64,000 bases of DNA from an uncultured bacterium (GTDB taxonomy: Bacteria; Patescibacteriota; Saccharimonadia; UBA4664; SCTI01): NCBI GenBank assembly GCA_963721685.1, contig CAVRJJ010000005.1, positions 103,943 to 167,942 of the forward strand. The letters are read 5' to 3'. The notes below the pieces were generated by a model. That model saw nothing but the letters and a program-made list of their open reading frames with translations. It was not told where the DNA came from and did no database searches. The first letter of the stretch is position 1. Every line of letters starts with the position of its first letter. Position numbers and translations under genes: made by a program. Of the stretch, positions 2,212 through 46,324 are shown piece by piece.

Positions 2212-3144
2212 TTAGGCTTTAACCCGTCCCGCAACTTTATAAATCAACTGCTCAACCAAGACTTCCGCAACCCCAGCTCCGGATTTAATTTGATAATCGG
2301 TATCAACCGCCTCTAAAAAAGCTTCCTTCAAAGCTTCTTCGGTGAATAAATGCCGTTTGGCCAGCATTTTGCCAGACACATAAGGCGACATACCGGCGGC
2401 CTTTGCCAGCTGGGACGAGGACATTGATCCGGCCGTCTTGGCTATTAAGAGATTACGCAGCTGCCAAATAACCATACTCAACATATAAACTTCATGCTGG
2501 CCATCTTGCCGCAGCTTATGGTAGCCTTGGAGCGCTTCGCTAATTTTGCCGGCAGTCATGGCTTCAACCAAGTTAAAAATGGTTTCAACATTTCCCTCTT
2601 CCACCTGCTCGTTCACCGTTTCAAAAGTAATAAGCGAACGGTACGCGACTAGCTTGGCGATCTCGTTGCTCAGCCGCCATTGGTCATCGCCAGCCAGCTC
2701 CAACAACCGAGCCAGTGCGGACCGTTCAATTTCCGCCCCCGCTTCCCGCGCCTGCCGGGTTACCCAGCCCTGGAGTTTGGCTGGCGCCAGCATTTCAAAC
2801 TTTACCGCCTTACCTTTGCTGCTCATAGTTTTAAAATAAGTTGTCCGCTGGTCCACCTGGGGATCGTAAAACACCGCGATGGTGGTTTTGGGAATATTCT
2901 CCAGATAGTCGCCGATTTTTGGGGCAACCGCCTTATTTGCACCAAGATCCTCTATAATTACCAAGCGGCTGTTTGCCAGAAATGGGGCTGCCTGCAACGC
3001 GTTTTGAAACTCATCGGCTTTAACCTTAGCACCATCAATCCGCTCCAGTCCAAAATTGCTCCCAGACTTTTGTTCATAGTCTGCCATGAGCTTGCTAATT
3101 TGCTGCCGGGCTTCATAGGTGTTAGGCCCATAAAAGAAAAAGAT
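2212..3144 (-). CDS. holA: DNA polymerase III delta subunit-like (HolA); ORF track extends to 3249 but MIFFFYGPN start near 3144 is more likely
   Basis: ...MIFFFYGPNTYEARQQI... N-terminal motif, ~310 aa length, sits with fpg/polA on the same strand; weak family-level recognition only. Confidence 0.45.
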   Translation of the reverse strand: MFFFYGPNTYEARQQISKLMADYEQKSGSNFGLERIDGAKVKADEFQNALQAAPFLANSRLVIIEDLGANKAVAPKIGDYLENIPKTTIAVFYDPQVDQRTTYFKTMSSKGKAVKFEMLAPAKLQGWVTRQAREAGAEIERSALARLLELAGDDQWRLSNEIAKLVAYRSLITFETVNEQVEEGNVETIFNLVEAMTAGKISEALQGYHKLRQDGQHEVYMLSMVIWQLRNLLIAKTAGSMSSSQLAKAAGMSPYVSGKMLAKRHLFTEEALKEAFLEAVDTDYQIKSGAGVAEVLVEQLIYKVAGRVKA

Positions 3145-4047
3145 CATCCTGTAAGTGTACCACTCCGAGAAAGCTTCAGCTTTTGACATTGGGGGCACAA
3201 ATGCGTGCCCCGGCCCGCCACCCGGGTTTTGATAATCACGCTTTGGCACACCGGGCAGGTTAGCCCCTGGCGGCGGAACACCCGGGCATTTTGGAGGTAG
3301 TCTCCTTTGCCGCCTAGCGCGTTCACATAAGAGGTAAAGCTGGTACCACCGTGCTCTACACCAAGAGCAATAATGGCTTTTATGGCTTCATAGAGGCGCT
3401 GAACTTCAACTTTAGACAAGCTTCCAGCCAGCCGGGCGGGATGGATTTTAGCCAAATGCAGAGACTCGTCGGCGTAGATATTGCCCACCCCTGCAACGGT
3501 TGACTGATCCAAGATCACACCCTTAACCGGTGAACCGCTACGGCGTTTTAAGATAACTGAAAACGGAACTAGCTCGAAGGCTTCGGTCAGCGGTTCGGGT
3601 CCCAACCGGGCAATTAGGCTATCGCGCAATACATCAGGGTTGGACACTAATTTTACCCAGCCAAAGACTCGTTGGTCGTTGAAGTACAATATTGAACCGT
3701 CACTGAACCTAAAAATAACTTTGGTACTTTTATCCGGTAGCTGATCGGCCATGCTTTTAGTAGGATGGCCGGCGGCGTAACGCTCTCCTCCCGACTTAAC
3801 CAACACCATTTGGCCAGTCATTTTCAGATGGAACAGTAAGCTATAGCCGGTATCAAGTTCAATAATTAAGACTTTACCCTTGCGGCCGATCTTGGTGATA
3901 TGTGGCGCCAATCGCCTGAGCATCGGCTAATTCAGCCGACGACTGGAACGACTTCGGGTGCAGCACTTCAATATCGGTAAACTTCAGCCCAACAATGTTC
4001 TGCTGTAATCCAAGACGGATGGTTTCAACTTCTGGTAACTCCGGCAT
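3144..4047 (-). CDS. mutM: formamidopyrimidine-DNA glycosylase (Fpg/MutM), interrupted by a +1 frameshift near 3890-3925 (N-terminal 52 codons in another frame)
   Basis: Minus-strand translation from ATG 4045-4047 gives MPELPEVETIRLGLQQNIVGLKF... (catalytic Pro2/Glu3), stop after ...AIGATYHQDRPQG. Downstream frame has IGRKGKVLIIEL...HLKMTGQ...C-terminal zinc finger CPVCQ...CPQC. Confidence 0.75.
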
Positions 4048-11688: not shown

Positions 11689-12492
11689 TTAATGTTGCTT
11701 AAAAAAGCCTTCTTTTGTCAGTTGTTCCAACAACCTCGTAACCCGCTCGGGGTTTTCATCAGGAAAATGCTGCATTATGGCTTGGCCGGTAAGCACTGGA
11801 AACTCAAGCAGCAAGCGAATAAGCCGCCCGCGGAGCTGGCGGTCGGAGCCTTCAAACTTCGGCTGAGGGTTATAGTGCTGACTGCGGCGGTTGGGATTAG
11901 GGACTGTTTTAGCAAGATGGGTTCCGTAATCCATAAGCGCGTAATACCATTCGCGCGGGCTGGACTTATCCAGCGCCGCTTCAACTAGGGGCATAAGTTC
12001 CGTGTCGCTAACCGTGTCTGCGTTTGGAAAAAAATGATAAATAAAAACCCTCCGAATGTTGGTTTCAATAAATACTACTGGCTGGTTAAACGCGAAGGCC
12101 GCGATAGATCCGGCGGTGGCGGGGCCAATTCCTGGAAACAAAATGAGTTTAGCCGGGTCGTCCGGAAATATGGACCGATGCTTTTGAACAACAATCTGGG
12201 ACAAGCGTTGCAAATTAAGTGCCCGGCGATTATAGCCCATGCCTTGCCAAGCCGATAGCACCTTAGCGGTCCGGGCTGTTGCCAACCGGTGGAAGTCGGG
12301 AAATTCAGCAATAAATGCGGGGTATTTTTGCAGTACCCGCGCTACCTGTGTTTGCTGTAACATAACTTCAGAGATTACCACGTGGAAGGGTGTCGGCTGG
12401 TCGCGCCAAGGCATGGGCCGCCGCTGGTGGCGGTAATAGTCCCAAACGTGGTTTTGAAACTCTGTTATTAAGGCGGGCTTTTGGTTGGCCAA
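11689..12492 (-). CDS. HhH-GPD base-excision DNA glycosylase (Nth/MutY-like; no obvious C-terminal 4Cys Fe-S cluster)
   Basis: VMLQQTQVARVLQKYPAF...ILFPGIGPATAGSIAAFAF helix-hairpin-helix GPD motif. Confidence 0.65.
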   Translation of the reverse strand: MANQKPALITEFQNHVWDYYRHQRRPMPWRDQPTPFHVVISEVMLQQTQVARVLQKYPAFIAEFPDFHRLATARTAKVLSAWQGMGYNRRALNLQRLSQIVVQKHRSIFPDDPAKLILFPGIGPATAGSIAAFAFNQPVVFIETNIRRVFIYHFFPNADTVSDTELMPLVEAALDKSSPREWYYALMDYGTHLAKTVPNPNRRSQHYNPQPKFEGSDRQLRGRLIRLLLEFPVLTGQAIMQHFPDENPERVTRLLEQLTKEGFFKQH

Positions 12493-12495
12493 TAA

Positions 12496-12930
12496 TTACC
12501 CTAGATGGCTTGGTGCACCACCGAAGCTCCGCGGCATCGGATGGGGCGCGAGATGCAATGAAACCACCGGATGGCTTTCGGCACCAGGGCCATGAAGATC
12601 AAGAAAAGAATTTTTCATTTGGATTTTGTCGCGTGTACTTAAGTTGGAATGCTGGATCTGGTCAACCGCTTGGTGGATTGTGGGATGCTCCATGCGGTCA
12701 ACCACTTTAAAGCGTTGACGATCCATAACCGTATTATGCCCGCTGTATTCAACCAAACTACCAACCTGAAGTTGCTGATGGTGGGCGTCATTAAGCCGCA
12801 ACGCTAGCGGGTTTTTGTGCCTCATCAGCAGATCATAACTATGGTGCTGGAGCGGGACAACGGAAGACATATAGTTATTATAACGCAGATACTTCTTCTC
12901 TACTTGTGCCGCTTGGAAGCGTCCAGCCAT
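12496..12930 (-). CDS. hypothetical His-rich protein (true start uncertain)
   Basis: ORF only; no recognised motif. Confidence 0.2.
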   Translation of the reverse strand: MAGRFQAAQVEKKYLRYNNYMSSVVPLQHHSYDLLMRHKNPLALRLNDAHHQQLQVGSLVEYSGHNTVMDRQRFKVVDRMEHPTIHQAVDQIQHSNLSTRDKIQMKNSFLDLHGPGAESHPVVSLHLAPHPMPRSFGGAPSHLG

Positions 12931-20902: not shown

Positions 20903-21328
20903 TCAGACCTTTCTGGTCGGGTCTTTGGCATGTCTCTTCCTGCGATGAGACGCCTTGTAGTTAATTGCGGCGATATGGGCGTGAGCTAGTACTTCCTCGC
21001 GCTTGCCTTCGCCGATGGCTCTGCGTGTCGTTAAGGACGAGCCGTCGAGCCATTCATGGGGCGCCCTTAGCCAGGCGACGGCGAACTTGTCGCTGCACTC
21101 ATGCAGGTAAAGAAGCGCTACCGCCAGAACAGAAAGGCGTTCGTAATACTCTACTTCAATTGCGTTGAATGGATCATCCAACCAGCTAGCGACTACTTCG
21201 TGGGTTGCTTGAGTTGCAAGCCGAAGATCCTTGGCGCTCAGGGCATAACGATCCCTGAGCACACATGCGAGATTGCGTGTTGCAGGGGTCACCCACTTCT
21301 CCTTAAGCCATGCCGATAGGAGCTGCAC
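20903..21328 (-). CDS. hypothetical protein, elevated GC, possibly Xre/MbcA/ParS-like antitoxin C-domain (orphan)
   Basis: ...AWLRAPHEWLDGSSLTTRRAIGEGKREEVLAHAHIAAINY weak similarity to DUF2384 pattern; adjacent to tRNA cluster. Confidence 0.25.
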   Translation of the reverse strand: MQLLSAWLKEKWVTPATRNLACVLRDRYALSAKDLRLATQATHEVVASWLDDPFNAIEVEYYERLSVLAVALLYLHECSDKFAVAWLRAPHEWLDGSSLTTRRAIGEGKREEVLAHAHIAAINYKASHRRKRHAKDPTRKV

Positions 21329-21467
21329 GGACGCAGTCCTTCTGCGGCGGATGGAATCGAGTGGTACTTACTACGAAAACCCCATGGAAAAGGGATTTAA
21401 ACCGACGGCTTAGATTACCATAAAAAGCGTCCCGTGGATAGATGTAGGTTTAACAAATAATGCCATT

Positions 21468-21557
21468 TGGCGGAGAGAGAGGGATTCGAACCCTCGGTAC
21501 GGTTGCCCGCACACACGCTTTCCAAGCGTGCTCCTTAAGCCACTCGGACACCTCTCC
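21468..21557 (-). tRNA. tRNA-Ser (anticodon GGA), long variable arm
   Basis: Manual fold of reverse complement: GGAGAGG acceptor, anticodon loop TTGGAAA, T-loop GGTTCGAATCC, CCA present. Confidence 0.8.
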
Positions 21558-21620
21558 AGACCTGGGAATTATAGAGGTTCTGGATTGATTTGGGTAGTCA
21601 GAGAAATTATTTAACCAGGC

Positions 21621-21651
21621 GTCTGGTGGAGGCACCGGGAATCGAACCCGG
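21621..21651. repeat. 31-bp direct repeat copy 1 (tRNA 3' end: gtctggtggaggcaccgggaatcgaacccgg)
   Basis: 29/31 identical to 22598-22628; corresponds to T-arm plus acceptor 3' strand of the tRNA-like gene. Confidence 0.8.
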
Positions 21652-21695
21652 CCGACCCGAGTCGCGATCAGGTCACGACGCCAGTCTGTACCCCC
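21624..21695 (-). tRNA. tRNA-like element, degenerate or noncanonical (good acceptor/T-arm/CCA, no canonical D/anticodon arms in 72 nt); probable integration-site remnant
   Basis: Reverse complement GGGGGTA...CCGGGTTCGATTCCCGGTGCCTCCACCA; middle 31 nt cannot be folded into standard D plus anticodon arms; 10-bp complement between flanks tgtctggtgg/ccaccagaca. Confidence 0.35.
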
Positions 21696-21807
21696 GAAAG
21701 GTACACCGTACCACCAGACATTTTTATCGTATCAATCCGACATTACATTAGAATTAAATGTTGGTGTTTTTATTGAAAAATATGATTCGAGGGATATAAT
21801 TGAAATT

Positions 21808-21833
21808 GACCCGAGTCGCAATCAGGATCGCAC
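21808..21833. repeat. internal partial copy of tRNA-like body (gacccgagtcgcaatcaggatcgcac vs 21655-21680)
   Basis: 22/26 match read directly. Confidence 0.6.
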
Positions 21834-21852
21834 GGCATCAGCCATACACACG

Positions 21853-21880
21853 AAAAGAGCAGCCATGCTGCTCTTTTCTG
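21853..21880 (-). terminator. hairpin aaaagagcagc-atg-gctgctctttt after asparaginase-like gene
   Basis: 11-bp stem flanked by A/T runs immediately after stop at 21881. Confidence 0.45.
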
Positions 21881-22393
21881 CTATTCAAACCTAAATAATT
21901 CCACATTCTTGTCCACTTCACTGGAGGCAAAAATCCCGCCGTTCATGGAAAGGTAAACGCCGGGTTTAATGTTAGCAAACGACGCAACTACAAACCCCAG
22001 GTTGAAGCCGGCATCGGACGCGGCGAAACCAGTCAACGGGATCATCGATCCGGTCACAATAATTTTCTTAAGCCCCCCCCCGCTAAATTCTTGATCTAAA
22101 AATTGGGCTGTGTCTCGCATGGTAAAGGTGCCGTGGGTTACGATAATATTCTCGTGCGGGCTGGCATTAATGGCTTTGACAAGCTTCTTCCGATCTTCGT
22201 CGTTAATGTCCCGGCTGTCTTTTTCGATGACACTTTCAGTACTAAAATTGAAATGAGGCTTTATGAGATTGTGAAAATAACTTTCAATTGATGAATCCAG
22301 CTTCATGAGCTTTTTATTAATAGCGTCGTAGGCCGGGTCAAAGAACTCAATAGTTCCACCCATTTTTACAATGTGGACGTGGCTGTTTGGCAC
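21881..22393 (-). CDS. L-asparaginase/glutaminase family N-domain-like protein (170 aa, short) on AT-rich cassette between tRNA fragment repeats
   Basis: KMGGTIE (TGGTIAG-like) and IIVTHGTFTM (hGTDTM-like) motifs. Confidence 0.5.
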   Translation of the reverse strand: MPNSHVHIVKMGGTIEFFDPAYDAINKKLMKLDSSIESYFHNLIKPHFNFSTESVIEKDSRDINDEDRKKLVKAINASPHENIIVTHGTFTMRDTAQFLDQEFSGGGLKKIIVTGSMIPLTGFAASDAGFNLGFVVASFANIKPGVYLSMNGGIFASSEVDKNVELFRFE

Positions 22394-22597
22394 GATTAAG
22401 CTCCCATTTTATAACTGACATTAGTATAACTCATGCTTACAATTGGATGAGCTGATAAAAAACGAGCTGGAGTCGCGATTTAGCCGGTAATTATTCTTGA
22501 TCTGCGTTGCTTCAGGCGGTAAAATGTAAACTAGTTCGTAGCCAAGTCTTGATACATAAAACCCAGCAATTGCTGGGTTTTATGTCAGTACTATGAT

Positions 22598-22628
22598 GTC
22601 TGGTGGAGCCACCGGGAATTGAACCCGG
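22598..22628. repeat. 31-bp direct repeat copy 2 (orphan tRNA 3' fragment, no tRNA body upstream)
   Basis: gtctggtggagccaccgggaattgaacccgg; sequence 5' of it in RNA orientation is not tRNA-like. Confidence 0.8.
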
Positions 22629-22657
22629 AAAAGTGCATATGTTGCTACAATTAAGTT

Positions 22658-23549: not shown

Positions 23550-23783
23550 CTAGGTGATCAGCGTGTCGCCACCGAGGTCGGGCGCGTCGCCGAGGGCGTC
23601 GTCGATGATGTCGTCGTCGGCCGCGTTCGAGGTGACCCGGAGGAAGCCGCCGTCGGGCGTGATGGGCAAGCCGGCCTCGAGGTGATGGCAGTGCGCGCCG
23701 CGCGTGTCGCGGTCGATCTCGTGCGCGATGCCGTCGCCGAGGGTGAGGCCATAGTCCTTCGGCGGTGCCAGAATTCCCAGCAT
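23550..23783 (-). CDS. small acidic hypothetical protein (77 aa, MLGILAPPKDYGL...) on high-GC cassette; ORF-track 151-aa version over-extended
   Basis: aggagcaggatc-ATG RBS at 23783; conserved 5' element lies upstream at 23891-23987. Confidence 0.4.
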   Translation of the reverse strand: MLGILAPPKDYGLTLGDGIAHEIDRDTRGAHCHHLEAGLPITPDGGFLRVTSNAADDDIIDDALGDAPDLGGDTLIT

Positions 23784-23890
23784 GATCCTGCTCCTCTTCT
23801 TGCGATGAATAGCAACGCTTAACGATCCCGTCAGCTTATCAGATGCTCCGATAGCTTCATTGGTCGTTTGGTGGTCGATCCTCGAATACG

Positions 23891-23987
23891 TTGCTGTAAC
23901 CCGAGCAAAAAATAACCATATAAAATGGTGAACTTTTGCTCGGGTTACGACGTTGTGTTCTGGTCTGTCAAAGAAATAATCGTAATT
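23891..23987 (-). promoter_or_regulatory. cassette 5' element copy A: TTTCTTTGACAGACCAGAAC plus 15-bp-stem hairpin GTAACCCGAGCAAAA/TTTTGCTCGGGTTAC
   Basis: Read directly; same architecture as 27659-27756 and 29313-29423. Confidence 0.6.
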
Positions 23988-24146
23988 TGCAATATGCATA
24001 ACCACAACTACTGGTAATAAAGTATATAATTCATTTTCGAAATGTCAACAAAAAGCACCGACACTTCATTTTTGTCTTGACTACTGCGTATCCTGATAGC
24101 AACCGATCAAACGATAGGCGCAGGCAAGTGAAGAACGTATTTGTGA

Positions 24147-25169: not shown

Positions 25170-25237
25170 GTATGCCTCCGCTTAGTATCCTCGTATTGTA
25201 GCTTCTAGGCGCAGAGGAGTCGAATAATTGCTGAGTG

Positions 25238-26070
25238 TGACACATCAGAACATAGGAGACGCGGGCGGGGGCCGTCCAAAGCCCCCGCCTTGTGAATGCG
25301 CCTCTGGCACCGATCCAGAGGTAGGCGATAGGATCGGCATCAGCTGTGCCGCAGGTGCGGCAGAAACTACGGAAGATCCAGCGAACGGCAACTGAGGCCG
25401 ACGGGAGGGGAAACGACCCCAGCCACCGTTCGCTTTACAGGGCTTGACCTTCTCCAACGCGCGACTCCCTGAGTGACGCGCGGTATGCACGCGGTAGACA
25501 GCTAAATGTCACTGCCAAAGCCGCGTACGTTTGAGCGCCGAGGCGCGGCGCCTAGATCTGATTCGAACTGCCACCGCCGGATCGCTTCGAGGTGGAGACC
25601 ATCCCCGGAAGGTTCACGACCTTGCCGGTTGTGGACCTGATCGGCAGGCCAGGAGGCGGCATGCCGAACGGAACCTTCTCGGTCCCCCGATGTCGTGTCG
25701 TCATTTGACGCTCCTGATGGGCGCGCTGTTGCGCTGTCGGAGGTACCTCGTCGGACTGACCGCCGTCGACGATGTCGAGACCACGCTGTACGTAGTGGTC
25801 GGCCGCAACACGGCGACCGGAGTGGTACTGGGGCCCGCTGCAGACGAGCCGTTGGTATGGCCATTCATCGATGAATCCCCTCTTCTAGCTGCGCGAAGAC
25901 AGTGGCTGCCAAGCCACGAGACAACATTCCGTGATCCATCCTTGCAATCAAAGACGCTTGTCTCATCCGTAGATATATCGCGCATATATCCCGAACAGCT
26001 AACCGCCAATATAAATTAGAAGCTGGCTGTCCGGGACAAAAACCGAAATTCGCTATGTTCTGATGTGTCA
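25238..26070. mobile_element. 833-bp high-GC cassette bounded by 17-bp perfect inverted repeats TGACACATCAGAACATA; right end also carries the TTGACA-type cassette 5' motif; small Ser/Thr-rich ORFs inside (e.g. 25701-25868 minus, 56 aa, GAGGGGA RBS)
   Basis: IRs at 25238-25254 and 26054-26070 read directly; coding content ambiguous (all six frames open due to GC). Confidence 0.35.
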
Positions 26071-26264
26071 AAGAATGTCGCGAATACTTATAAATAACCG
26101 CAACTGGTAAGACATTGTAGTTATACTTGCCAGAAGCGTCAACCCAGCAAGCCGTTGCGGGCTCTGCACCTTTAACCTGGCCGCTTTGTCAAAAAGCTCA
26201 TAAAAGCGAATAATTGCTGTTAGAACAGGCTTGAACACAATAGCAGGCATAGCGAGGTGGACAT

Positions 26265-26739
26265 AGTCGACATGGTGGCGGGCCGAAGCCCGCCACCGGT
26301 CGAGTTGAAGGGCTAGATGCCCGGTTGCGGGTCACTCCACTTGCTGTATCGCTGGCCGACGATGCGGTACTCGATGACTCCGTTCACATACACCGGCTTC
26401 TTCTCGACGTAGTAGACGCAGTCCAGCGTCGTGATCTTCCAGCGCTGCCAGTCGACGCGCTTGCAGGCCCCGTAAGGCACATTCGTGGCGTTTGAAACGC
26501 CCCATGCCTGGACGACTGCATCTTGAGCTTCAAGGCATGTCGGCATCGCGGGGTGATCGATCTTGGCCGCGATGTTGAAGAACACCGCAGTCGGACTCGG
26601 AGACCAACAGGGGTTCCAGTCTGGGTCGCACTCGCCCCTTGTTCCGTAGTCGTTGTAGTCAGGTTGCACCTGGCTGACCGGCGTGCTCGCACCAGCCACT
26701 GGCCACGGCGAGTTAATCGGTTGCGCGTCGTAGTAGTAG
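26265..26739. repeat. 475-bp block nucleotide-identical to 27881-28355 (3' gene ends plus 3' hairpin); second identical block 26792-26873 = 28408-28489
   Basis: Direct base-by-base comparison; mosaic identity. Confidence 0.9.
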
Positions 26740-27602
26740 TCGACATAGGTTGCCGCCCCATCATCAAGATCCATGATCTTGATTTGGGCCCGCTGCTGTA
26801 CGGGGCCCCGCCCGTAGGTGTCCAGCGCCGGGTCATAGGCGTTGGGGTAGTGGTAGTAGATCGGGAACGGCGTCGAACCTTGGAGTTGGAAATCCTGGTA
26901 GTAGCCGTCGCCAGAGTGAATCCGAATCCGCCGACCCACACCATTGTCTGTGTTGGCCGTCCGCGGGACGTTGATGATCAACTCTGCCCGAATGAGCTTG
27001 TTCGAAGTACCCGTCGGGTGAGTCAATCCACTAGTCGTCGATTCCGTGTGGCTCCTTGTTGAAAACGAGGAAGACACAAGCTTGTCTTCCTTTGCCACGT
27101 AATACCCGCCTTGGAAGGAATCGATTACAGTCGATCTCGTATACGGAGACGTCGGTACAGGAGCCAAAGCCGAGGTTTGGCTCCCCCCGTATTGCGAAAC
27201 GTATGGAGCGCTGGCATTTGCGCGTGCGCGCGACTCAGCAGTGGAACTTCCTGGAGCTCCAAGCATGCCTTGTCCCGCTGCTTCTACTGCGCGACGGGCT
27301 GTGTCACCCCGAATTGACTGCTTTGAAGGGCAAGCCGATCCAGTTGTTTTGATGACGGTGATGACCCACTTGGTGCCGTCCCACTGAGCACGCAGGTAGA
27401 CATAAACGTCGCATTGCTGCCCGCTCGAGCAGAAGATGAGCTTCGTGGTTGGCGTAGCCGGATTTGCCGAGACAATGCAGTAGTGCGGCAAGCCCGTCAC
27501 CGGGTCCGGAATGTGGAAGGCGGCACTCGCTGGCGACGGCGCAACTGCCATTGCCACGGACACTACGATGGCGGCTGCCAACGTAGTAAATAGTCTTTGC
27601 AT
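26313..27602 (-). CDS. secreted Cys-rich hypothetical protein, paralog A (signal peptide MQRLFTTLAAAIVVSVAMAVAPSPASA)
   Basis: 429 aa; C-terminal 190 aa identical to paralog B; 6 Cys in last 90 aa. Confidence 0.6.
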   Translation of the reverse strand: MQRLFTTLAAAIVVSVAMAVAPSPASAAFHIPDPVTGLPHYCIVSANPATPTTKLIFCSSGQQCDVYVYLRAQWDGTKWVITVIKTTGSACPSKQSIRGDTARRAVEAAGQGMLGAPGSSTAESRARANASAPYVSQYGGSQTSALAPVPTSPYTRSTVIDSFQGGYYVAKEDKLVSSSFSTRSHTESTTSGLTHPTGTSNKLIRAELIINVPRTANTDNGVGRRIRIHSGDGYYQDFQLQGSTPFPIYYHYPNAYDPALDTYGRGPVQQRAQIKIMDLDDGAATYVDYYYDAQPINSPWPVAGASTPVSQVQPDYNDYGTRGECDPDWNPCWSPSPTAVFFNIAAKIDHPAMPTCLEAQDAVVQAWGVSNATNVPYGACKRVDWQRWKITTLDCVYYVEKKPVYVNGVIEYRIVGQRYSKWSDPQPGI

Positions 27603-27658
27603 CTGATGCTCCTCACATGTAGCTGGGCAGTGAAAGGCAATTACCTCGTTCTCGAGCT

Positions 27659-27756
27659 CACTGCTGTAACCCGAGAAAAAGCTTGCAATAGATTATCTAC
27701 AAACTCATTTTCGGGTTACAGCAGTGTTCTGATCTGTCAAAGAAAATGCCGTAATC
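27659..27756 (-). promoter_or_regulatory. cassette 5' element copy C (19-bp stem cactgctgtaacccga.aaa / ttttcgggttacagcagtg, then GTTCTGATCTGTCAAAGAAA)
   Basis: 57 nt upstream of paralog A start. Confidence 0.6.
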
Positions 27757-27928
27757 AAACCTAATAGGAGCAACTACGACAAGTGTAGGGATTCTAATGC
27801 TTACTGTTGCACTTCGTCAATAGCGCCAATTTAAATAATTGCATTTGAAACGGATCAGAAGACTTTTAACTTGAGTTGTTAGTCGACATGGTGGCGGGCC
27901 GAAGCCCGCCACCGGTCGAGTTGAAGGG

Positions 27929-29254
27929 CTAGATGCCCGGTTGCGGGTCACTCCACTTGCTGTATCGCTGGCCGACGATGCGGTACTCGATGACTCCGTT
28001 CACATACACCGGCTTCTTCTCGACGTAGTAGACGCAGTCCAGCGTCGTGATCTTCCAGCGCTGCCAGTCGACGCGCTTGCAGGCCCCGTAAGGCACATTC
28101 GTGGCGTTTGAAACGCCCCATGCCTGGACGACTGCATCTTGAGCTTCAAGGCATGTCGGCATCGCGGGGTGATCGATCTTGGCCGCGATGTTGAAGAACA
28201 CCGCAGTCGGACTCGGAGACCAACAGGGGTTCCAGTCTGGGTCGCACTCGCCCCTTGTTCCGTAGTCGTTGTAGTCAGGTTGCACCTGGCTGACCGGCGT
28301 GCTCGCACCAGCCACTGGCCACGGCGAGTTAATCGGTTGCGCGTCGTAGTAGTAGAACGCGTAGGACACGCTCCTGTCGTCGAGATCCTCAATCTTCAGA
28401 ACCGCATGCTGCTGTACGGGGCCCCGCCCGTAGGTGTCCAGCGCCGGGTCATAGGCGTTGGGGTAGTGGTAGTAGATCGGGAACGGCGTGGTGGTCGATA
28501 TGAACATGTCCACGTGCGAGCCGTCGCCGGCGGAGATCCTGATGCGCCGGCCGTTGATGTTGGTACGCGGCACATTGACTACGAGCCCCGCCTCCATCAC
28601 CTTGTTCGAAGTACCCGTCGGCTGCTTGAGCACAGCGGTCTCGGCGTGATTTCTTGGCGTGATCCCGCCCGTTGATCCGCCCTTTGCCCGGATGGTTCCA
28701 CCGTCGAAACTTTCGATAGCGGTGAACGGCCGTGCATATGGCGCCGGGGGTGTCTGGCTGGTCGACCATGTCGGATTTGAAGCGGTCAGATATGGGGCCG
28801 TCCCCTTCGCCCTTGCAGACGCCGCCGGCCCCCAGCCTGGCGGCGGAGGATTCGCTCCACCGGGATCACCCAACATCCCCTTGCCAGCCTGTTCGACGGC
28901 TCGCTTTCCCTTGGCCGCGCGTTGCGCTCGCCTGGCCGGGGTCGCACCTACCGCCGTCGATTCCGTCACGACCCACTTGCCGTTGATGAACTCAGCGCGC
29001 ATCCAGATGGAGACGCTGCTGCGCGTCCCGTCGACGCAGTGCACAACGGCTACGCGCGGCCCTTCGCCCCGATCGATGACGACGCAGGTCAACTCCTCTC
29101 CCGTTTCCGGGTCGGTGATGATGTAGGCCTCAATCCCTTCGCCACCGGGAATGAAGATGGGGCCGTTCGCGCTTGCTGGTGACGGCGAGAACGCCATGGC
29201 CAGCATCGCGGCAACGGTTACGCATAGAGCCATCCGACGTTTTCTCATTTTCAT
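27929..29254 (-). CDS. secreted Cys-rich hypothetical protein, paralog B (true start MKMRKRRMALCVTVAAMLAMAF at 29254; track ORF over-extended to 29449)
   Basis: gggagcattctc-ATG RBS; signal peptide; conserved blocks TGTSNK..VNVPRT, TPFPIYYHYPNAYDPALDTYGRGPVQQ shared with A. Confidence 0.6.
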   Translation of the reverse strand: MKMRKRRMALCVTVAAMLAMAFSPSPASANGPIFIPGGEGIEAYIITDPETGEELTCVVIDRGEGPRVAVVHCVDGTRSSVSIWMRAEFINGKWVVTESTAVGATPARRAQRAAKGKRAVEQAGKGMLGDPGGANPPPPGWGPAASARAKGTAPYLTASNPTWSTSQTPPAPYARPFTAIESFDGGTIRAKGGSTGGITPRNHAETAVLKQPTGTSNKVMEAGLVVNVPRTNINGRRIRISAGDGSHVDMFISTTTPFPIYYHYPNAYDPALDTYGRGPVQQHAVLKIEDLDDRSVSYAFYYYDAQPINSPWPVAGASTPVSQVQPDYNDYGTRGECDPDWNPCWSPSPTAVFFNIAAKIDHPAMPTCLEAQDAVVQAWGVSNATNVPYGACKRVDWQRWKITTLDCVYYVEKKPVYVNGVIEYRIVGQRYSKWSDPQPGI

Positions 29255-29312
29255 GAGAATGCTCCCTTGGTTGCTGGTAACAGTGTATGGTGAATCTTTA
29301 TCGACCTCAGGT

Positions 29313-29423
29313 CCACTGCGTAACCCGAGCAAAAAACCACCAAAAAAGTATGGTGGACTTGTGCCCCGGGTTACGCCCGGTAAATTTATGTGTCCTAACC
29401 TGTCAAAGAAACTAGTCGTAATT
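29313..29423 (-). promoter_or_regulatory. cassette 5' element copy D (imperfect hairpin gcgtaacccgagcaaaaaaccacca / tggtggacttgtgccccgggttacgc, then CCTGTCAAAGAAA)
   Basis: Upstream of paralog B start. Confidence 0.5.
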
Positions 29424-29558
29424 AGAGAAAAAGCTCTAATTGCGGCCACATGGTATTAGATTCTATAATGAATTTTTAATTTGTCAATATATGTTCAGCC
29501 AGCAGAAAGAGCCTACTATAGCTCTTTCTGCTCAATATCAATTATCCTGTTCTGAGCT

Positions 29559-31646: not shown

Positions 31647-32284
31647 TTAGGAGGATTTAACCCGTTCAAGAATAAACTTAATGACGTCTTCAACATTCCG
31701 GTGGGTGGTGTCGATTACCGTGGCATCTTCAGCTTGCTTGAAGGTTCCAACTTTTTTGGCGGCGTCGGCGGCATCCCGTTCAAGCAAAGAGGTGACGGTT
31801 TCATGGCCGCGGCCACCGGCGTTTACCCGCCGCACCCGCTCTTCAGGGTCGCACGTGAAATGAAACTTGTAGGGCGTATCGGGAAATACCCGGGTAGTTA
31901 TATCGCGCCCTTCCATAACTACACCATTTTCATTGGCGTAGTTACGCTGTAACGATAAAATTTGGTCGCGCACCTGCCGGATGGCTGGACACCACGGCAA
32001 CCTGGTTGTTGACATCTTCCAGATGAAGCTTGCCGCGGACATCTTGCCCGTTGACGGTTACTACGTTACCGCCGTCAAACTTAAACTTGATGGCTTTGGC
32101 GATTTCCAAATTTCCCTTGGCATCCTGGGGGTCAATGCCGGCCTGTAAACAAGCAAATGTAATGCCGCGGTAGAGTTCACCGGTGTTTAAATGCGGAAGA
32201 TTAAGTTTTTCGGCAACACCCCGAGCTACGGTGGAAGTTCCGGTTCCGGCTCCGCCGTCTATCGCGATAATCAGTCTTCGTCAT
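31647..32284 (-). CDS. cmk: cytidylate kinase, broken into three frames by two +1 insertions (near 32272 and ~32000)
   Basis: ATG 32284 overlaps Mur-ligase stop (ATGA); middle frame LIIAIDGGAGTGTSTVARGVAEKLNLPHLNTGELYRG; C-frame EGRDITTRVFPDTPYKFHFTCDPEERVRRV. Confidence 0.7.
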
Positions 32285-33588
32285 GCTTTCCCTTTGCTTA
32301 AAATTGCTTTTTTAGCCTCGGCAAACTCATTCCACGGCTCTTCCCCGCTTGCGCGTTCGATGGTTTTTTCGTGCCCCTTGCCCAGCAGCATGACAGTGTC
32401 GCCTTGTCCGGCTTGTTGCACGGCAAAGGCAATTGCCTCGCTCCGATCGTGCACCAAAAACAAGTTTTTGTCACGCGCTTTTCCGGCTTCCGCGGCTCCC
32501 GCGGCAATCTGCTCCAAGATAGCTTGGCCGTCAATGTCGCGGTCGTCCTCTTCGGTTACCACTACTATATCGGCGTAGGTCCCGGCGCTGCGTCCCTGCA
32601 TTGGCCGTTTGGCCTCATCACGCCGCCCAGCTGAACCGAACATGACAATAAGCTTATGGGGCGGCTTAACGGTGGCGCGCATATCGCTTAATAATTTTTC
32701 AAAGGAATCGGGGGTATGGGCAAAGTCGACAATTACGGTAAAGTCCTGGCCTTCCTCAATCTTGGTCATCCGCCCTTCAACCACCTTAAGGGCGGCGATC
32801 CCCTGTTCAATTTGGGCGTTGGTAAGGTTAAGCGTAATTCCAACGCTAACCGCCGCCAACGAGTTATAAACGTTAAAACTGCCAGGCAAATGCAGTGTGA
32901 TATGCAAGGTATCATTCCCACGCCGAACCAAGTAATGGCTGCCGGTAGGAGTTGTTGTAACGTCAACAGCTTTGATATCGCCAGACTTAACCCCATATGT
33001 CAGCGGATGCGGCACATCGCCAGCAAAGGCGGCGGCGCTAGGATCTTCGGCATTAATAACCCCAACTTGCAAGCCGTCCTTATTGCTCCGGGCAAGCTGA
33101 AACAGGCGGCGTTTCGCGTCCCGGTAGCGCTCAAAGGTTTCGTGGTAATCTAGGTGCTCATGATTGACATTGGTCATTACCGCCACACTAAAGGGCACGC
33201 CCCATACCCTGTGTTGAGCCAAAGCGTGGCTGGTAGTTTCCAGCACAAGCCATTCAATGCCATCGGCACGCATTTGCTTTATGCGCTGCATCAACGGAAA
33301 AGCCTGCATGCTCGTCATATGCACATGATTGTGATGCTGCCACTTAGGCGTTCCGTATCCTATAGTGGTCATATAGCCAACGTTATAACCAGCTTCCTTT
33401 AACGTGGTCCAAATCAAGGTGGTCGTTGAGGTCTTACCGTCGGTTCCGGTAACGCCAATTACCTTCAAGCCGCGGGCGGGAAACCCGTAATAAATGTTGG
33501 CAGCAACCGTTTCAAGCAGATGGCCATAGGGCTCAATTTGGCGGAAAAGTTGGCGAGGGATTAAAGATTTTACAACGCGGCGAAACAT
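32281..33588 (-). CDS. Mur ligase family protein (MurE/MurF/MurT-like, 435 aa)
   Basis: GVTGTDGKTSTTTLI P-loop, Mur ligase middle-domain pattern; exact member undetermined. Confidence 0.6.
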   Translation of the reverse strand: MFRRVVKSLIPRQLFRQIEPYGHLLETVAANIYYGFPARGLKVIGVTGTDGKTSTTTLIWTTLKEAGYNVGYMTTIGYGTPKWQHHNHVHMTSMQAFPLMQRIKQMRADGIEWLVLETTSHALAQHRVWGVPFSVAVMTNVNHEHLDYHETFERYRDAKRRLFQLARSNKDGLQVGVINAEDPSAAAFAGDVPHPLTYGVKSGDIKAVDVTTTPTGSHYLVRRGNDTLHITLHLPGSFNVYNSLAAVSVGITLNLTNAQIEQGIAALKVVEGRMTKIEEGQDFTVIVDFAHTPDSFEKLLSDMRATVKPPHKLIVMFGSAGRRDEAKRPMQGRSAGTYADIVVVTEEDDRDIDGQAILEQIAAGAAEAGKARDKNLFLVHDRSEAIAFAVQQAGQGDTVMLLGKGHEKTIERASGEEPWNEFAEAKKAILSKGKA

Positions 33589-34239: not shown

Positions 34240-34467
34240 ATGAAAATTATTAGCTATCTTCGCGAACCAAATAACACCGGTATCGCTCTTTTTGGCTTAG
34301 CTGCCACAATATTAATCGCAATTATTGGAGCCGGTTCGCTCGGGCTTGTCGCAACCGCGCAACTCCTTAACCAAGTTGCCCAACCGATTTGCGCCGCGGC
34401 GATTGGCGTTTTGATGTACTTAGCATTGGTCGCCCGCCAGCTTGAAAAAGCTAACGCCGACCGCTAA
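34240..34467 (+). CDS. small two-TM membrane protein, hypothetical
   Basis: GGAATTATG RBS-like context; hydrophobic helices. Confidence 0.35.
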   Translation: MKIISYLREPNNTGIALFGLAATILIAIIGAGSLGLVATAQLLNQVAQPICAAAIGVLMYLALVARQLEKANADR

Positions 34468-35492
34468 TAAAACAGCCGGTGGTGCCGACGCGCCTCGTAG
34501 GCCATCACCAAGCGCTCCCCCATCTGGCGCCACAGCTGGTACGATCTAGAATTTAATACCAAGTCATAAGTACCAATAAATTCTGTGATTTCGGAATTAA
34601 AGCCTCGCTTAAAACGCGCCAATCCAGCTAATGGATGATCGGGATTATCAATTTCGGCTAGCGGCGGAACACCATGCAGGTCGTATTCTTCGACGCCCCG
34701 GCTCTTTAGCCAGCGCATAATTTCCCACTGCATAAGATAAGGCGCCTGCAATTCGGGATGATCGCGGTATGAGGCACCATCTTTATAAAGGCCTGATTTA
34801 CCAAGATACGTTATAAACGCCCCGGCTACCGGCTCCTCTTCAAAGTAAGCAAAAAACATTTGCCCGCTCCCCTGTTCGGCATGTAAGCTCCAAAAATCGG
34901 TAAAATAAGCCTCCTCCCGGGCATACACCCCGGCACGCTCATAGGTTGATTTTGCCATTCGGTAAAGCTGAGCCATGCTTTCCGAGTTTGTCTCTGCGGC
35001 CTTAACCGTGACACCTTTTTTAGCTGCTAGCCGAATATTGTAGCGGGTTTTTTGCTTAAACGAAGCTATTATTTCATCTTCACTGGGCTTTAAATCCACT
35101 ATTACCGTCGCCGTGTTGTACTGAATGTCCCGGGTTCTCAGCAGTCCGGCAGCGGCCATTTGAGCCGGCTCACCTTTTTCCTTTGCTATTTCCGGGTCCA
35201 TACGAACGCAGAATGCATTACTGCTGCGCAGCTCTTTAACAACTTTCTTTAAGCTTGGTAAATCATTCACGCCTGGCCCTTTAGGTATATAGGTATACTT
35301 TCCCAAAATCGGAATATGGCGCGACAGTGTTAGTATTGCCACCCCGCCGGACACAATATAGTCTGCCTCCCAACCGTGGCGGATCTTAAGTTCGCCAAAC
35401 GCCTTCGCCTGCAGGACATTGCCGCCATCCGGATTAGCGGTGATTAACCGGTCCCAGTCTTTGCGTTCTTCAGGTGTAGCCGTTCTTAGCAT
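34464..35492 (-). CDS. FemAB-family peptidoglycan interpeptide-bridge aminoacyltransferase (paralog 1)
   Basis: ~340 aa, FemAB-like architecture, tandem with paralog of same size. Confidence 0.55.
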   Translation of the reverse strand: MLRTATPEERKDWDRLITANPDGGNVLQAKAFGELKIRHGWEADYIVSGGVAILTLSRHIPILGKYTYIPKGPGVNDLPSLKKVVKELRSSNAFCVRMDPEIAKEKGEPAQMAAAGLLRTRDIQYNTATVIVDLKPSEDEIIASFKQKTRYNIRLAAKKGVTVKAAETNSESMAQLYRMAKSTYERAGVYAREEAYFTDFWSLHAEQGSGQMFFAYFEEEPVAGAFITYLGKSGLYKDGASYRDHPELQAPYLMQWEIMRWLKSRGVEEYDLHGVPPLAEIDNPDHPLAGLARFKRGFNSEITEFIGTYDLVLNSRSYQLWRQMGERLVMAYEARRHHRLFY

Positions 35493-35495
35493 TGC

Positions 35496-36464
35496 CTATC
35501 CCCTGCCTCGAAACTTCCGGTAAAGCGAATATGCGCGGTATTTAAGCGGTTTTACCGGGATATCCCAGGTACCAAGGTAATCCACCGGCTTACCGCCAAA
35601 CGCTACTTTGAACCGGCTTAAGGAAGCGAGTCTATGACCAACCTCATCCGCGGGAGCAACCCCCCATAAATCAAACCGCTTAAGGCCTGCAGTCTTGGCG
35701 TCTAATATCGCCTGCCAAACTAAAGAAACCGACGCTTTGGCTTGACGATTTTGCTGCTGGTGGGCTCCGGCATGCATGTAGTAGCGTGTCCCCTCCCAAT
35801 CGTAGAACAATGCTGCCGCCACAGGACGGCCGGCAACCTCAGCCACATACAGTTTGGCAATGCCTAATGGTTGAAGGACGCTCCACAGTTTCTGGTAGTA
35901 GCTGGCGGGATAAAAGGTTACGTTAGAATGCTTAGCGGTTTCAGCCAGCATGGCTTGAAACACCTCAAAGTCTGATTGCTTATTAGTTTGTCGAACGCTA
36001 ATCCCCCGCCGCTTGGTGCCGTTTATCAGATTACGATGACCCGACGCAAGATCAAACCGAAGCTTAGATTCAGGCTGAGTTAAATCAAGCACACGAGTAT
36101 GCTGCGGGTCGACTTCGGCAACCGGTCGACCACCAAGCTTAAGCATTTCTTTAGTGCTTATGTTTGCATGTGGCTCTATCCGAACAAAATCGGTACCCAG
36201 CTCTTTCGCCGCCGCCAGCGTTGACATGATCGCGGTACTCATTGCAGCCTCATCGCGCGCTACCGGACCGTAGCCGCACAGCAAATAACGCAGGCCATGA
36301 CTCCCCCGCACCGCACCCGCCCAGCGCCAGCCATCACCCATGTCCCACACAACTTCGCGTTCCAACTGTTGTTGAAATAACATCCATGATTGACTCTGCA
36401 AAATGCCGCCGCCCAGCTTTTGCAGTTGATTATCCCAGTCGTCGGGCGGCAGTCCGTGTTTCAT
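35496..36464 (-). CDS. FemAB-family aminoacyltransferase (paralog 2)
   Basis: As above; HAGAHQQ...RFDLWGV pattern parallel to paralog 1 (HGVPPLA..). Confidence 0.55.
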   Translation of the reverse strand: MKHGLPPDDWDNQLQKLGGGILQSQSWMLFQQQLEREVVWDMGDGWRWAGAVRGSHGLRYLLCGYGPVARDEAAMSTAIMSTLAAAKELGTDFVRIEPHANISTKEMLKLGGRPVAEVDPQHTRVLDLTQPESKLRFDLASGHRNLINGTKRRGISVRQTNKQSDFEVFQAMLAETAKHSNVTFYPASYYQKLWSVLQPLGIAKLYVAEVAGRPVAAALFYDWEGTRYYMHAGAHQQQNRQAKASVSLVWQAILDAKTAGLKRFDLWGVAPADEVGHRLASLSRFKVAFGGKPVDYLGTWDIPVKPLKYRAYSLYRKFRGRG

Positions 36465-46247: not shown

Positions 46248-46324
46248 TGGTGCGCCCGGCAGGATTCGAACCTGCGACCTCCAGTACCGCAAACTGACGC
46301 TCTATCCAGCTGAGCTACGGGCGC
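46248..46324 (-). tRNA. tRNA-Arg (anticodon reads GCG)
   Basis: Manual cloverleaf: GCGCCCG acceptor, D GCTC/GAGC, anticodon loop TTGCGGT, T-loop TTCGAAT, discriminator A, CCA. Confidence 0.8.

Follow-up and report, generated by a model that had tools for sequence, protein, structure and literature searches.

What might a bacterial cell do with an alanine-charged tRNA-like domain (TLD) that has no template for a peptide tag: use it for rescue, as a decoy, or for transfer of alanine away from the ribosome? This question is raised by a 72-nucleotide (nt) element on the minus strand of a 64-kb stretch of contig CAVRJJ010000005.1, from an uncultured bacterium of the class Saccharimonadia (the window), and with it the question of a reduced trans-translation in the ultra-small cells of the candidate phyla radiation (CPR). 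Transfer-messenger RNA (tmRNA) is regarded as near-universal and indivisible in bacteria, a tRNA part joined to an mRNA part, and TLD-only forms have so far been a curiosity known from a single phage and some organelles, with no more than one line in the literature on one genus of Patescibacteria. The element lies between tRNA-Ser(GGA) and pgeF, and an earlier note, made from the letters alone, had taken it for a degenerate tRNA-like gene. In our analysis it is probably a functional and conserved small RNA of Saccharimonadia, of alanine type and reduced to little more than the TLD of tmRNA, at a locus that has been rearranged by the insertion of a foreign gene. The locus would then be a chromosomal example of a TLD-only RNA, found in three Saccharimonadia genomes together with a promoter-like box, a leader and a hairpin. 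The element is called the mini RNA below.

Sequence and Structure of the Mini RNA

The minus strand reads GGGGGUA-CA-GACUGGCGUC-GU-GACCUGAUCGCGACUCGGGUC-GG-CCGGGUUCGAUUCCCGG-UGCCUCC-ACCA. The acceptor stem GGGGGUA/UGCCUCC comprises 7 bp with two G-U pairs, one of them G3:U70, and its 5' strand is followed by 2 nt and a mini D stem of 3 bp that encloses the loop UGGC. A canonical T arm (CCGGG-UUCGAUU-CCCGG) is present, the discriminator is A73, and CCA is encoded, as it is in 6/6 tRNA genes of the window. The centre is a closed hairpin of 7 bp with the 7-nt loop UCGCGAC, separated from the T arm by 2 nt. The description given in the earlier note, with two G-U pairs in the acceptor stem, a canonical T arm, a CCA end and a middle that cannot form standard D and anticodon arms, is thus correct throughout. 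G3:U70 and the discriminator A form the alanine identity set that tRNA-Ala and tmRNA have in common and that alanyl-tRNA synthetase (AlaRS) recognizes.

ARAGORN calls the element a tRNA-Arg(GCG) with the anticodon at position 31, in a non-standard fold. The genuine tRNA-Arg(GCG) is found at 46248-46324 (68 bits), so that the label on the mini RNA duplicates it, and an automated annotation would list a spurious second isoacceptor. At the gathering score no Rfam family, that of tRNA included, reports the element. Given this label and these scores, such an RNA is likely to be mis-annotated or missed. A canonical cloverleaf is not formed: the 4-bp D stem is lacking, the central arm has 7-9 bp in the RNAs compared below, and there is neither a conserved U33 nor an anticodon. 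The ARAGORN call is hence non-canonical and the duplication of the 3' end described below is real, which leaves the earlier note standing on both of the points by which it had proposed to be judged.

Conservation in Relatives

Relatives were fetched by PgeF and GroEL searches, and the fetched loci are designated by L-numbers. The gene content of the window includes an F-type ATPase operon, pgeF, a gene for a bifunctional PGI, GroES/EL and two FemAB genes. The relatives of its GroEL that bear a name are Candidatus Saccharimonadia and Saccharimonadales, both of them Patescibacteria. Homologues of the mini RNA, each of 71 nt, were found in two other Saccharimonadia genomes, L002 (3212-3282, minus strand) and L110 (7339-7409, plus strand). 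Relative to the window the proteins of L002 are 84% (GroEL), 76% (PGI) and 62% (PgeF) identical, and those of L110 82, 76, and 44%, respectively. The apparently closest relative of the window is L003, in which PGI is 93% identical over the 90 visible residues.

Since MAFFT alignments mis-registered the 5' strand of the RNAs, the window copy having 2 extra nt, pairs were counted by script on a hand-made, sequence-verified partition of the three sequences. The acceptor stem is paired at 7/7 positions and the T stem at 5/5 in all three RNAs, with G3:U70, A73, and CCA invariant, and the mini D stem is paired at 3/3, 3/3, and 2/3 positions, its GG loop being kept. Compensatory double changes occur at five pairs in four helices. 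At acceptor pair 5 a single copy has G:C where the other two have C:G, acceptor pair 7 switches between A:U and G:C, T-stem pair 1 switches between C:G and U:A, pair 2 of the mini D stem changes from A:U to G:C, and pair 2 of the leader-trailer helix described below changes from U:A to G:C. The central arm is a hairpin in every case, of 7, 8, and 9 bp in the three genomes, with sequences that cannot be aligned. Its loops, UCGCGAC in the window and CUUGUCAAU and AUUGCUAA in the other two, are 7-9 nt long and conserved neither in length nor in sequence. A loop that is this free where an anticodon would stand indicates that the RNA is not a decoding tRNA. ARAGORN reports a tRNA for the window copy only and misses those of L002 and L110. 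Neutral spacer DNA between the three genomes cannot be aligned.

The signals around the gene are also kept. The core TACGAT of an extended -10 box is present in 3/3 genomes (TGATACGAT in the window, TGCTACGAT in L002, GGCTACGAT in L110; general form ATTG-N(1-2)-TACGAT), in each case 6-7 nt upstream of the leader (6 nt in the window). A consensus promoter scan omits this box because there is no -35 box; we infer its role as a promoter from its conservation. It resembles the TGCTACAAT boxes found before pgeF and before the ABC operon in these genomes. The first nine nucleotides of the leader, GUCUGGUGG (21711-21719), are complementary to the 3' end CCACCAGAC (21621-21629) and are followed by a 15-nt linker. 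They would pair with the two final bases of the acceptor, ACCA and at least 3 nt of the trailer, in a leader-trailer helix of 9, 14, and 11 bp in the window, L002 and L110, respectively. Downstream of the intact gene a hairpin with A-rich and U-rich flanks is found in L002 (3178-3205) and L110 (7414-7445). In both the window and L110 the mini RNA is situated upstream of tRNA-Ser(GGA) on the same strand and divergent from the (ABC-FtsX-)pgeF operon.

Taken together, the homologues, the compensatory changes, the kept promoter-like box, leader and hairpin and the synteny identify the mini RNA, as far as sequence comparison can, as a real gene of a Saccharimonadia sub-lineage, chromosomal, syntenic and structurally constrained. 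The label "degenerate" must therefore be given up. The comparative genomics that the earlier note had called for confirmed an insertion at the locus relative to L003; the element itself turned out to be conserved in L002 and L110 and not to be decaying.

Relation to tmRNA

In a permissive Rfam scan the best match to the 72-nt element is tmRNA, with 25.3 bits and E=1.2e-7. The same holds for the other two RNAs, which score 25.7 (L002) and 20.4 bits (L110), the E-values of the three ranging from 1e-7 to 5e-6; all lie below the gathering score of 47 bits. Within the tRNA clan the tmRNA model gives the best-scoring match for all three, by an apparently small margin over tRNA, and no other Rfam model spans each of the three from end to end. 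On the window copy the match comprises the two ends only, as it does in L002, with 328 central model positions replaced by 24 nt. There is no tag reading frame, resume codon or stop codon in the element, the approximately 24-35 nt between D loop and T arm forming one closed hairpin, and with RNAs of 71-72 nt in total there is no room for the pseudoknots PK1-PK4 and the P2 helix, which are absent.

The tmRNA database paper lists nine unique "standard, no CDS" (no coding sequence) sequences and names as such forms plastid tmRNAs of approximately 65 bp (Mallomonadaceae), a TLD-only RNA in mycobacteriophage DS6A and the tmRNAs of two groups of bacteria, including the genus 9FT-COMBO-53-11 (PMC11915505). 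Among 6765 Patescibacteria genomes, three "no CDS" instances are recorded as against 5252 genomes with a standard tmRNA (PMC11915505, Supplementary Table 2). By its sequence features the window RNA fits this class of TLD-only variants, and it fails the features of both the standard tmRNA and the canonical tRNA. In common with the class it has a length of about 65-80 nt, G3:U70, a discriminator A, a T arm, a D arm reduced to a GG loop (here a remnant on a stem of 2-3 bp), one closed helix where the mRNA-like domain would be, and no tag frame. It stands apart from the class by its conserved leader, complementary to the CCA end, and by the local copy of the central arm found in two of the genomes. 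We located the DS6A element at 28478-28560 of JN698994 (L098), where an acceptor stem, a GG loop, one closed helix and a T arm form the same three-way layout as in the window RNA. Beyond the generic tRNA-like parts no sequence relation between the two is detectable. DS6A keeps the D-loop motif GGUCGAC, which is loose or absent in the window family, and its RNA is phage-borne, whereas the window family is chromosomal, with members in syntenic position in three genomes. The no-CDS tmRNA of 9FT-COMBO-53-11 (sp001772805) belongs to the same phylum, Patescibacteria; this comparison is by the published record, not by sequence.

The standard tmRNA (ssrA, RF00023) shares with the mini RNA the model ends, GGGGGUA..CUGG at the 5' side and the T arm followed by UGCCUCCACCA at the 3' side, as well as the alanine identity elements, and ssrA is likewise found at spots with fragments and insertions. 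The TLD is complete; in the window family the mini D stem of 2-3 bp is even slightly more than a typical tmRNA has. What sets the two apart is that the resume codon, the tag frame and four pseudoknots have given way to 24 nt, with scores of 20-26 bits against the 47 required. From tRNA-Ala (RF00005), with which it shares G3:U70, A73, CCA, the T arm and, for some phage tRNA-Ala genes, an identical 3' end of 28 nt, the window family differs by the missing 4-bp D stem and by a central arm of 7-9 bp instead of 5, with a loop of 7-9 nt. Mitochondrial tmRNA, according to 2004 work as cited in PMC11915505, is also reduced to the TLD, yet conserved and thought still to act with SmpB; it is usually permuted, in two pieces and organellar, whereas the window gene is unpermuted and bacterial.

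Transcription would start at the TACGAT-type promoter of the mini RNA gene itself and give a precursor whose CCA end is masked by pairing with the 5' leader. An RNase P-type maturation, as for tRNA, would free the RNA, which AlaRS could then charge with alanine; this is proposed because AlaRS requires the acceptor stem only. It would afterward act outside normal decoding, which is likely because it cannot read codons. The gene would normally have tRNA-Ser(GGA) on one side and the divergent (ABC-FtsX-)pgeF operon on the other. Among the conceivable roles that of a ligand of SmpB and the ribosomal A site, as a CDS-less tmRNA or an SmpB-binding decoy, appears most likely, that of an alanine donor for the FemAB-family enzymes encoded at 34464-36464 is placed second and any other role third. 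A TLD-like molecule has been described as a strong inhibitor of tmRNA, perhaps by titrating SmpB, in the account that PMC4131195 gives of Mao et al. (2009). Which of these roles applies would turn in the first place on the presence of a standard ssrA and an smpB in the same genome. No full tmRNA is found elsewhere in the 64-kb window, either at the Rfam gathering score or by ARAGORN.

Several points weigh against this account of the mini RNA. Only three sequences were found, so that the covariation rests on few events. The tmRNA scores, below the gathering score, owe most of their value to the acceptor and the T arm, parts that are just as typical of a tRNA-Ala. Some tRNA-Ala genes of large phages have the same 3' half, identical over the 3' 28 nt, and the ends alone can accordingly not separate an origin from tmRNA from one from tRNA-Ala. 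The D-loop motif of tmRNA, UUCGAC, is at best loosely kept, and L110 lacks it. SmpB was not found by tblastn within the 64-kb window, a result that is uninformative for the whole genome. The mini RNA is missing at the syntenic spot of L003, L102, and L106-L109, where tRNA-Ser(GGA) stands alone, and is in those relatives either non-essential, lost several times or located elsewhere. Finally, no simple model of integration or duplication yields the order orphan 3' end, foreign gene, central-arm copy and intact gene that is described in the next section.

A phage origin was considered and rejected: in IMG/VR the 3' motif matches ordinary phage tRNA-Ala genes only, a pattern for the whole architecture finds nothing, and the only matches that blastn yields among 50,697 phage records are short ones to the 3' end. 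A permuted or two-piece tmRNA was likewise dismissed (permuted Rfam model 17.9 bits, E=0.81), there being no coding piece after the orphan fragment and no conserved tag-like open reading frame (ORF) in the candidate partner RNAs described below, and so was an identity as a Y-RNA-like or mascRNA-like RNA, for which the Rfam scores are at chance level.

Repeats and Rearrangement of the Locus

Two parts of the mini RNA gene recur nearby, as the earlier note had observed. The 3' end at 21621-21651, which includes 3 nt past CCA, recurs without a tRNA body at 22598-22628 with 29/31 identical positions, thus with two mismatches, where shuffled sequences give an expectation of 0.00. A piece of the body, 21654-21672, recurs at 21808-21826 with 18/19 identities (0.01 expected), and a looser likeness extends to about 26 nt. 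The 5' part of the element is unique within the window. Between the repeats the GC content in 200-nt windows is 0.385-0.505 and mostly below the 0.518 of the whole window, and a hairpin follows the reading frame that occupies the segment, which agrees with the AT-rich cassette with its own terminator that had been reported.

The orphan fragment has the acceptor strand UGGCUCC, which is of the L002 type, and the hairpin after it corresponds to the hairpin after the intact gene in L002 and L110. The most plausible reading is that an older, second copy of the gene lost its first 41 nt by deletion and that the orphan is its remaining stump, with the terminator hairpin. In L003 only about 96 nt separate tRNA-Ser from the pgeF promoter, and relative to this genome the block of about 1 kb bounded by the 31-nt repeats is therefore an insertion. 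In the window genome the low-GC asparaginase-like gene would have been inserted upstream of the intact copy, with the older copy cut to its last 31 nt and the hairpin, and with a copy of the central arm left between the foreign and the intact gene. The repeats around the mini RNA gene would thus be leftovers of the rearrangements that placed the foreign gene beside it. In an independent assembly of the reads (Logan contigs of ERR12037361) the asparaginase-like gene is found on a contig of 957 bp, which is the break expected of a k=31 assembler at 31-nt repeats.

The coordinates of the features are collected in Table 1.

Table 1. Features at and near the mini RNA locus, in window coordinates.
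Feature	Position	Strand	Basis and remarks
tRNA-Ser(GGA) with its own TATAAT box	21468-21557	-	ARAGORN, Rfam; 66 nt downstream of the mini RNA
3-nt trailer GAC after CCA	21621-21623	-	Part of the predicted leader-trailer helix and of the 31-nt repeat
Mature mini tRNA-like RNA (TLD-only type)	21624-21695	-	Sequence, ARAGORN, Rfam, homologues in L002 and L110, pair counts
5' leader	21696-21719	-	Begins GKCUGGUGG in 3/3 genomes
Promoter-like extended -10 box TGATACGAT	21726-21734	-	Read directly; no -35 box
Sigma-70-like promoter TTGAAA-16-TATAAT (11/12)	21773-21800	+	Consensus scan; points at the central-arm copy
Central-arm copy, 18/19 core, about 26 nt with one indel	21808-21833	-	Scar or, on the plus strand, candidate antisense 5' seed
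12-bp hairpin GAAAAGAGCAGC/GCUGCUCUUUUC	21852-21878	.	Right after the asparaginase-like stop codon
170-aa single-domain asparaginase-family protein	21881-22393	-	Pfam Asparaginase N-terminal domain
Perfect 16-bp palindrome hairpin, A-rich/U-rich flanks	22554-22585	.	12 nt downstream (minus sense) of the orphan fragment
Orphan 3' fragment	22598-22628	-	T arm, acceptor 3' strand UGGCUCC, ACCA, GAC
pgeF promoter-like box TGCTACAAT	22643-22651	+	14 nt from the orphan fragment; right-hand limit of the inserted/rearranged block
Mur ligase	32281-33588	-	Next to the FemAB-family pair
FemAB-family genes	34464-35492, 35496-36464	-	Pfam scan; tRNA-dependent aminoacyl transferases

The Asparaginase-Like Gene

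The protein encoded between the repeats matches the Pfam Asparaginase N-terminal domain (PF00710) with 70.6 bits and an E-value of 1.6e-19. Its homologues, present in hundreds of Patescibacteria and 65-80% identical, have 158-201 and mostly 168 amino acids. The gene, which the earlier note had regarded as truncated, is therefore not shortened, and by its sequence its product has the full length of the conserved single-domain family of 168 aa to which it belongs. The conserved motifs of the family are GGTIE, THGTFTM, and SDAGFNLG. While GGTI is kept, the HGTDT of asparaginases is changed to HGTFTM, with Asp replaced by Phe across the family (TYTM in L002). The C-terminal domain of the type I and II asparaginases is absent, and the NCBIfam equivalog cutoffs are far from reached. 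Because of the replaced catalytic Asp and the missing domain the activity is doubtful, and the family may not be an asparaginase at all.

The GC content of the gene is 0.446, compared with 0.518 for the window and 0.375-0.49 for the homologue loci, and the low value suggests that the gene was probably acquired horizontally. The nucleotide similarity to the homologue loci is 73% at most and ends at the borders of the reading frame. At the syntenic spot of L003 and L110 no such gene is present. L002 has an asparaginase-domain gene beside the mini RNA; it is 36% identical to that of the window and lies on the other side of the RNA and on the other strand. For these reasons, and given its absence from L110, the two genes appear to have been inserted independently of each other beside one and the same RNA gene. 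A general functional link between the mini RNA and the protein family was examined and discarded: 0/80 metagenome loci of the family carry the RNA in strict and loose scans, so that any link would be local to this lineage. The closest homologue of the window protein, 80% identical, was found on six contigs (L111-L116), all of which start exactly 108 nt upstream of the gene. This hints at a repeat at that distance from the closest homologue as well; no tRNA-like element is recognizable in the visible part of these contigs.

In other Patescibacteria the family gene is found within direct repeats of 26-48 nt (at least 35 bits) in 5/64 loci, as against 2/190 shifted controls (L031 579/1270; L026 and L027; L049 238/842; L040 2841/3688), and L025 (865/1461) has a weaker, 12-nt repeat made of the 3' end of tRNA-Pro. 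In at least six independent loci an ordinary tRNA gene (Pro, Ser, Gln, Val, Leu) lies 33-81 nt ahead of the family gene. The flanking repeats and the position after tRNA genes suggest that the family spreads in a cassette-like manner.

The Central-Arm Copy

The copy of the central arm in the window has a counterpart in L002, where 3155-3173 matches the arm of the L002 RNA itself (3247-3265) at 17/19 positions, with 0.00 expected by chance. The central arms of the window and L002 are unrelated in sequence, and each matches its own local copy. No central-arm copy is found in L110. In L002 a promoter-like sequence TTGACC-17-TAAGAT is present on the plus strand at 3120-3148, and the complementarity starts at 3155.

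These copies could be scars, or they could be the 5' seed of an antisense small RNA. By pairing with the central hairpin such an RNA would control or sequester the tRNA-like RNA, and the locus would then be a module of two RNAs. We consider the module a tentative possibility, short of an even chance, that follows from several coinciding signals. In both the window and L002 the sigma-70-like promoter stands about 6-8 nt before the first complementary base and a hairpin follows within 20-45 nt after the copy. In the window this is the 12-bp hairpin behind the asparaginase-like gene, which would serve as a bidirectional terminator for that gene and the candidate antisense RNA. It is also striking that two unrelated arms each have a copy of their own, where chance would give 0.00-0.01, that both differences in L002 become G-U pairs in an RNA duplex, and that predicted co-folding gains 17.5 and 23.3 kcal/mol over separate folds. 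However, the one position at which the window core differs would give an A-C mismatch, hexamers resembling promoters occur often in AT-rich spacers, and the number of cases is two. Moreover, L110 has the tRNA-like gene and lacks the copy, which is present only where an asparaginase-like gene has been inserted, as it would also be if it were a scar of the rearrangement. No conserved tag-like ORF was seen on inspection of the mini RNA and candidate partner RNA sequences. That the copies are whole decayed 3' halves of the gene was rejected (local alignment against shuffles, p=0.67 and 0.17).

Alternative Explanations

The earlier note had taken the locus for an integration hotspot with remnant att sites, and a classical form of this explanation makes the tRNA-like gene attB, the 31- and 26-nt repeats the remnants of attL and attR, and the asparaginase-like gene the cargo. 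Genes for tRNA and tmRNA are the usual targets of islands (PMC11915505). As in such islands, a gene of foreign composition lies between two direct copies of the RNA gene's 3' portion, the block is inserted relative to L003, and the site varies among close relatives; elsewhere the family, moreover, is sometimes found between direct repeats and often a short way behind ordinary tRNA genes. Past the 3' end of tRNA-Ser(GGA), at 21391-21408, there is a weak copy (78%) of the T arm of that tRNA, together with a 141-aa ORF (20903-21328, minus strand) that has no family match and no counterpart in relatives; the two may be the remnant of a separate insertion at tRNA-Ser. The geometry is nevertheless wrong. 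Integration at a 3' end should give the order intact gene, island and 3' fragment, whereas the window has fragment, cargo and intact gene, with both fragments upstream of the intact gene and the orphan not beyond the island. The "island" is less than 1 kb between its repeats (about 1 kb in all), the second repeat is an internal hairpin only and its extension into a decayed T arm is not significant, and none of the 80 family loci scanned elsewhere carries the mini RNA. No integrase or recombinase domain was found in Pfam scans of nine ORFs at 19.2-29.4 kb and three at 32.3-36.5 kb, the rest of the window being unscanned. A spot of insertion and rearrangement beside tRNA-Ser(GGA), with a foreign gene and an ORF at 20903-21328 of its own, thus stands; integration through att sites is rather unlikely. 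The decaying pseudogene, a degenerate tRNA-Ala or an internally deleted tmRNA that has survived by chance, with the repeats as debris, is hardly credible. It would account for a locus full of fragments, for scores below the threshold of every Rfam family and for the non-canonical ARAGORN fold, but not for perfect acceptor and T stems with compensatory changes at protein identities of 62% (PgeF) and 76% (PGI), nor for a conserved promoter-like box, leader and terminator-like hairpin between genomes whose neutral spacers cannot be aligned.

A different function would be that of a dedicated, non-ribosomal alanine carrier, a mimic charged by AlaRS that feeds the FemAB-family enzymes of peptidoglycan branching in the way of the staphylococcal non-proteinogenic tRNA-Gly. 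The alanine identity set and CCA are kept in the absence of any conserved anticodon, the mini RNA adjoins pgeF, and two adjacent FemAB-family proteins and a Mur ligase are encoded at 32.3-36.5 kb, as they are in all relatives examined. FemX of Weissella, furthermore, accepts Ala-charged acceptor-arm helices. The argument is, however, purely one of guilt by association, and the RNA is absent from the locus in relatives that share these FemAB genes; a carrier is very unlikely. The most far-reaching combination would be a CPR RNA pair, an alanine-charged, anticodon-less, TLD-only RNA with a co-evolving antisense small RNA, which travels or rearranges with an asparaginase-domain gene; the RNA would be a regulated decoy or substitute in SmpB rescue, or an alanine donor for the FemAB enzymes encoded 11 kb away, with the antisense RNA as off switch. 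This combination is quite unlikely as a whole. A conserved small RNA of the TLD-only type, beside which a foreign gene was inserted, accounts best for the evidence as it stands.

Neighboring Genes

The arrangement of the FemAB pair and the Mur ligase is kept in all Saccharimonadia relatives that were fetched for it (L100, L102, L103, L106, L108), which points to a branched peptidoglycan built from aminoacyl-tRNA in these CPR bacteria. PgeF matches the NCBIfam model of the peptidoglycan editing factor PgeF, below the model cutoff. The TGCTACAAT box (window 22643-22657; L003 1490-1515; L002 3356-3371) stands directly before pgeF in the window and L003, whereas it precedes the ABC-FtsX-pgeF operon in L002, L102, and L110. 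From this difference it would seem that the two transporter genes were deleted cleanly in the window and L003 and that the promoter was fused to pgeF.

Four ORFs of the region are without a counterpart in syntenic relatives (20903-21328, 23550-24005, 26313-27602, and 27929-29449). Between PGI and GroEL, at 25200-29500, the window has 4.4 kb of high-GC DNA (up to 0.63), compared with about 0.8 kb in L002, and this stretch is a further insertion, the second one, that is specific to the genome. Neither of its two ORFs, of 429 and 506 aa, matches a Pfam family or has a homologue in the syntenic relatives, and many ORFs overlap on both strands. Likewise between GroEL and PGI, in L108/L109, ARAGORN reports at 12435-12505 (plus strand) a further unusual tRNA-like element, a 71-nt "tRNA-???" with a two-base anticodon, situated just upstream of tRNA-Thr and tRNA-Cys.

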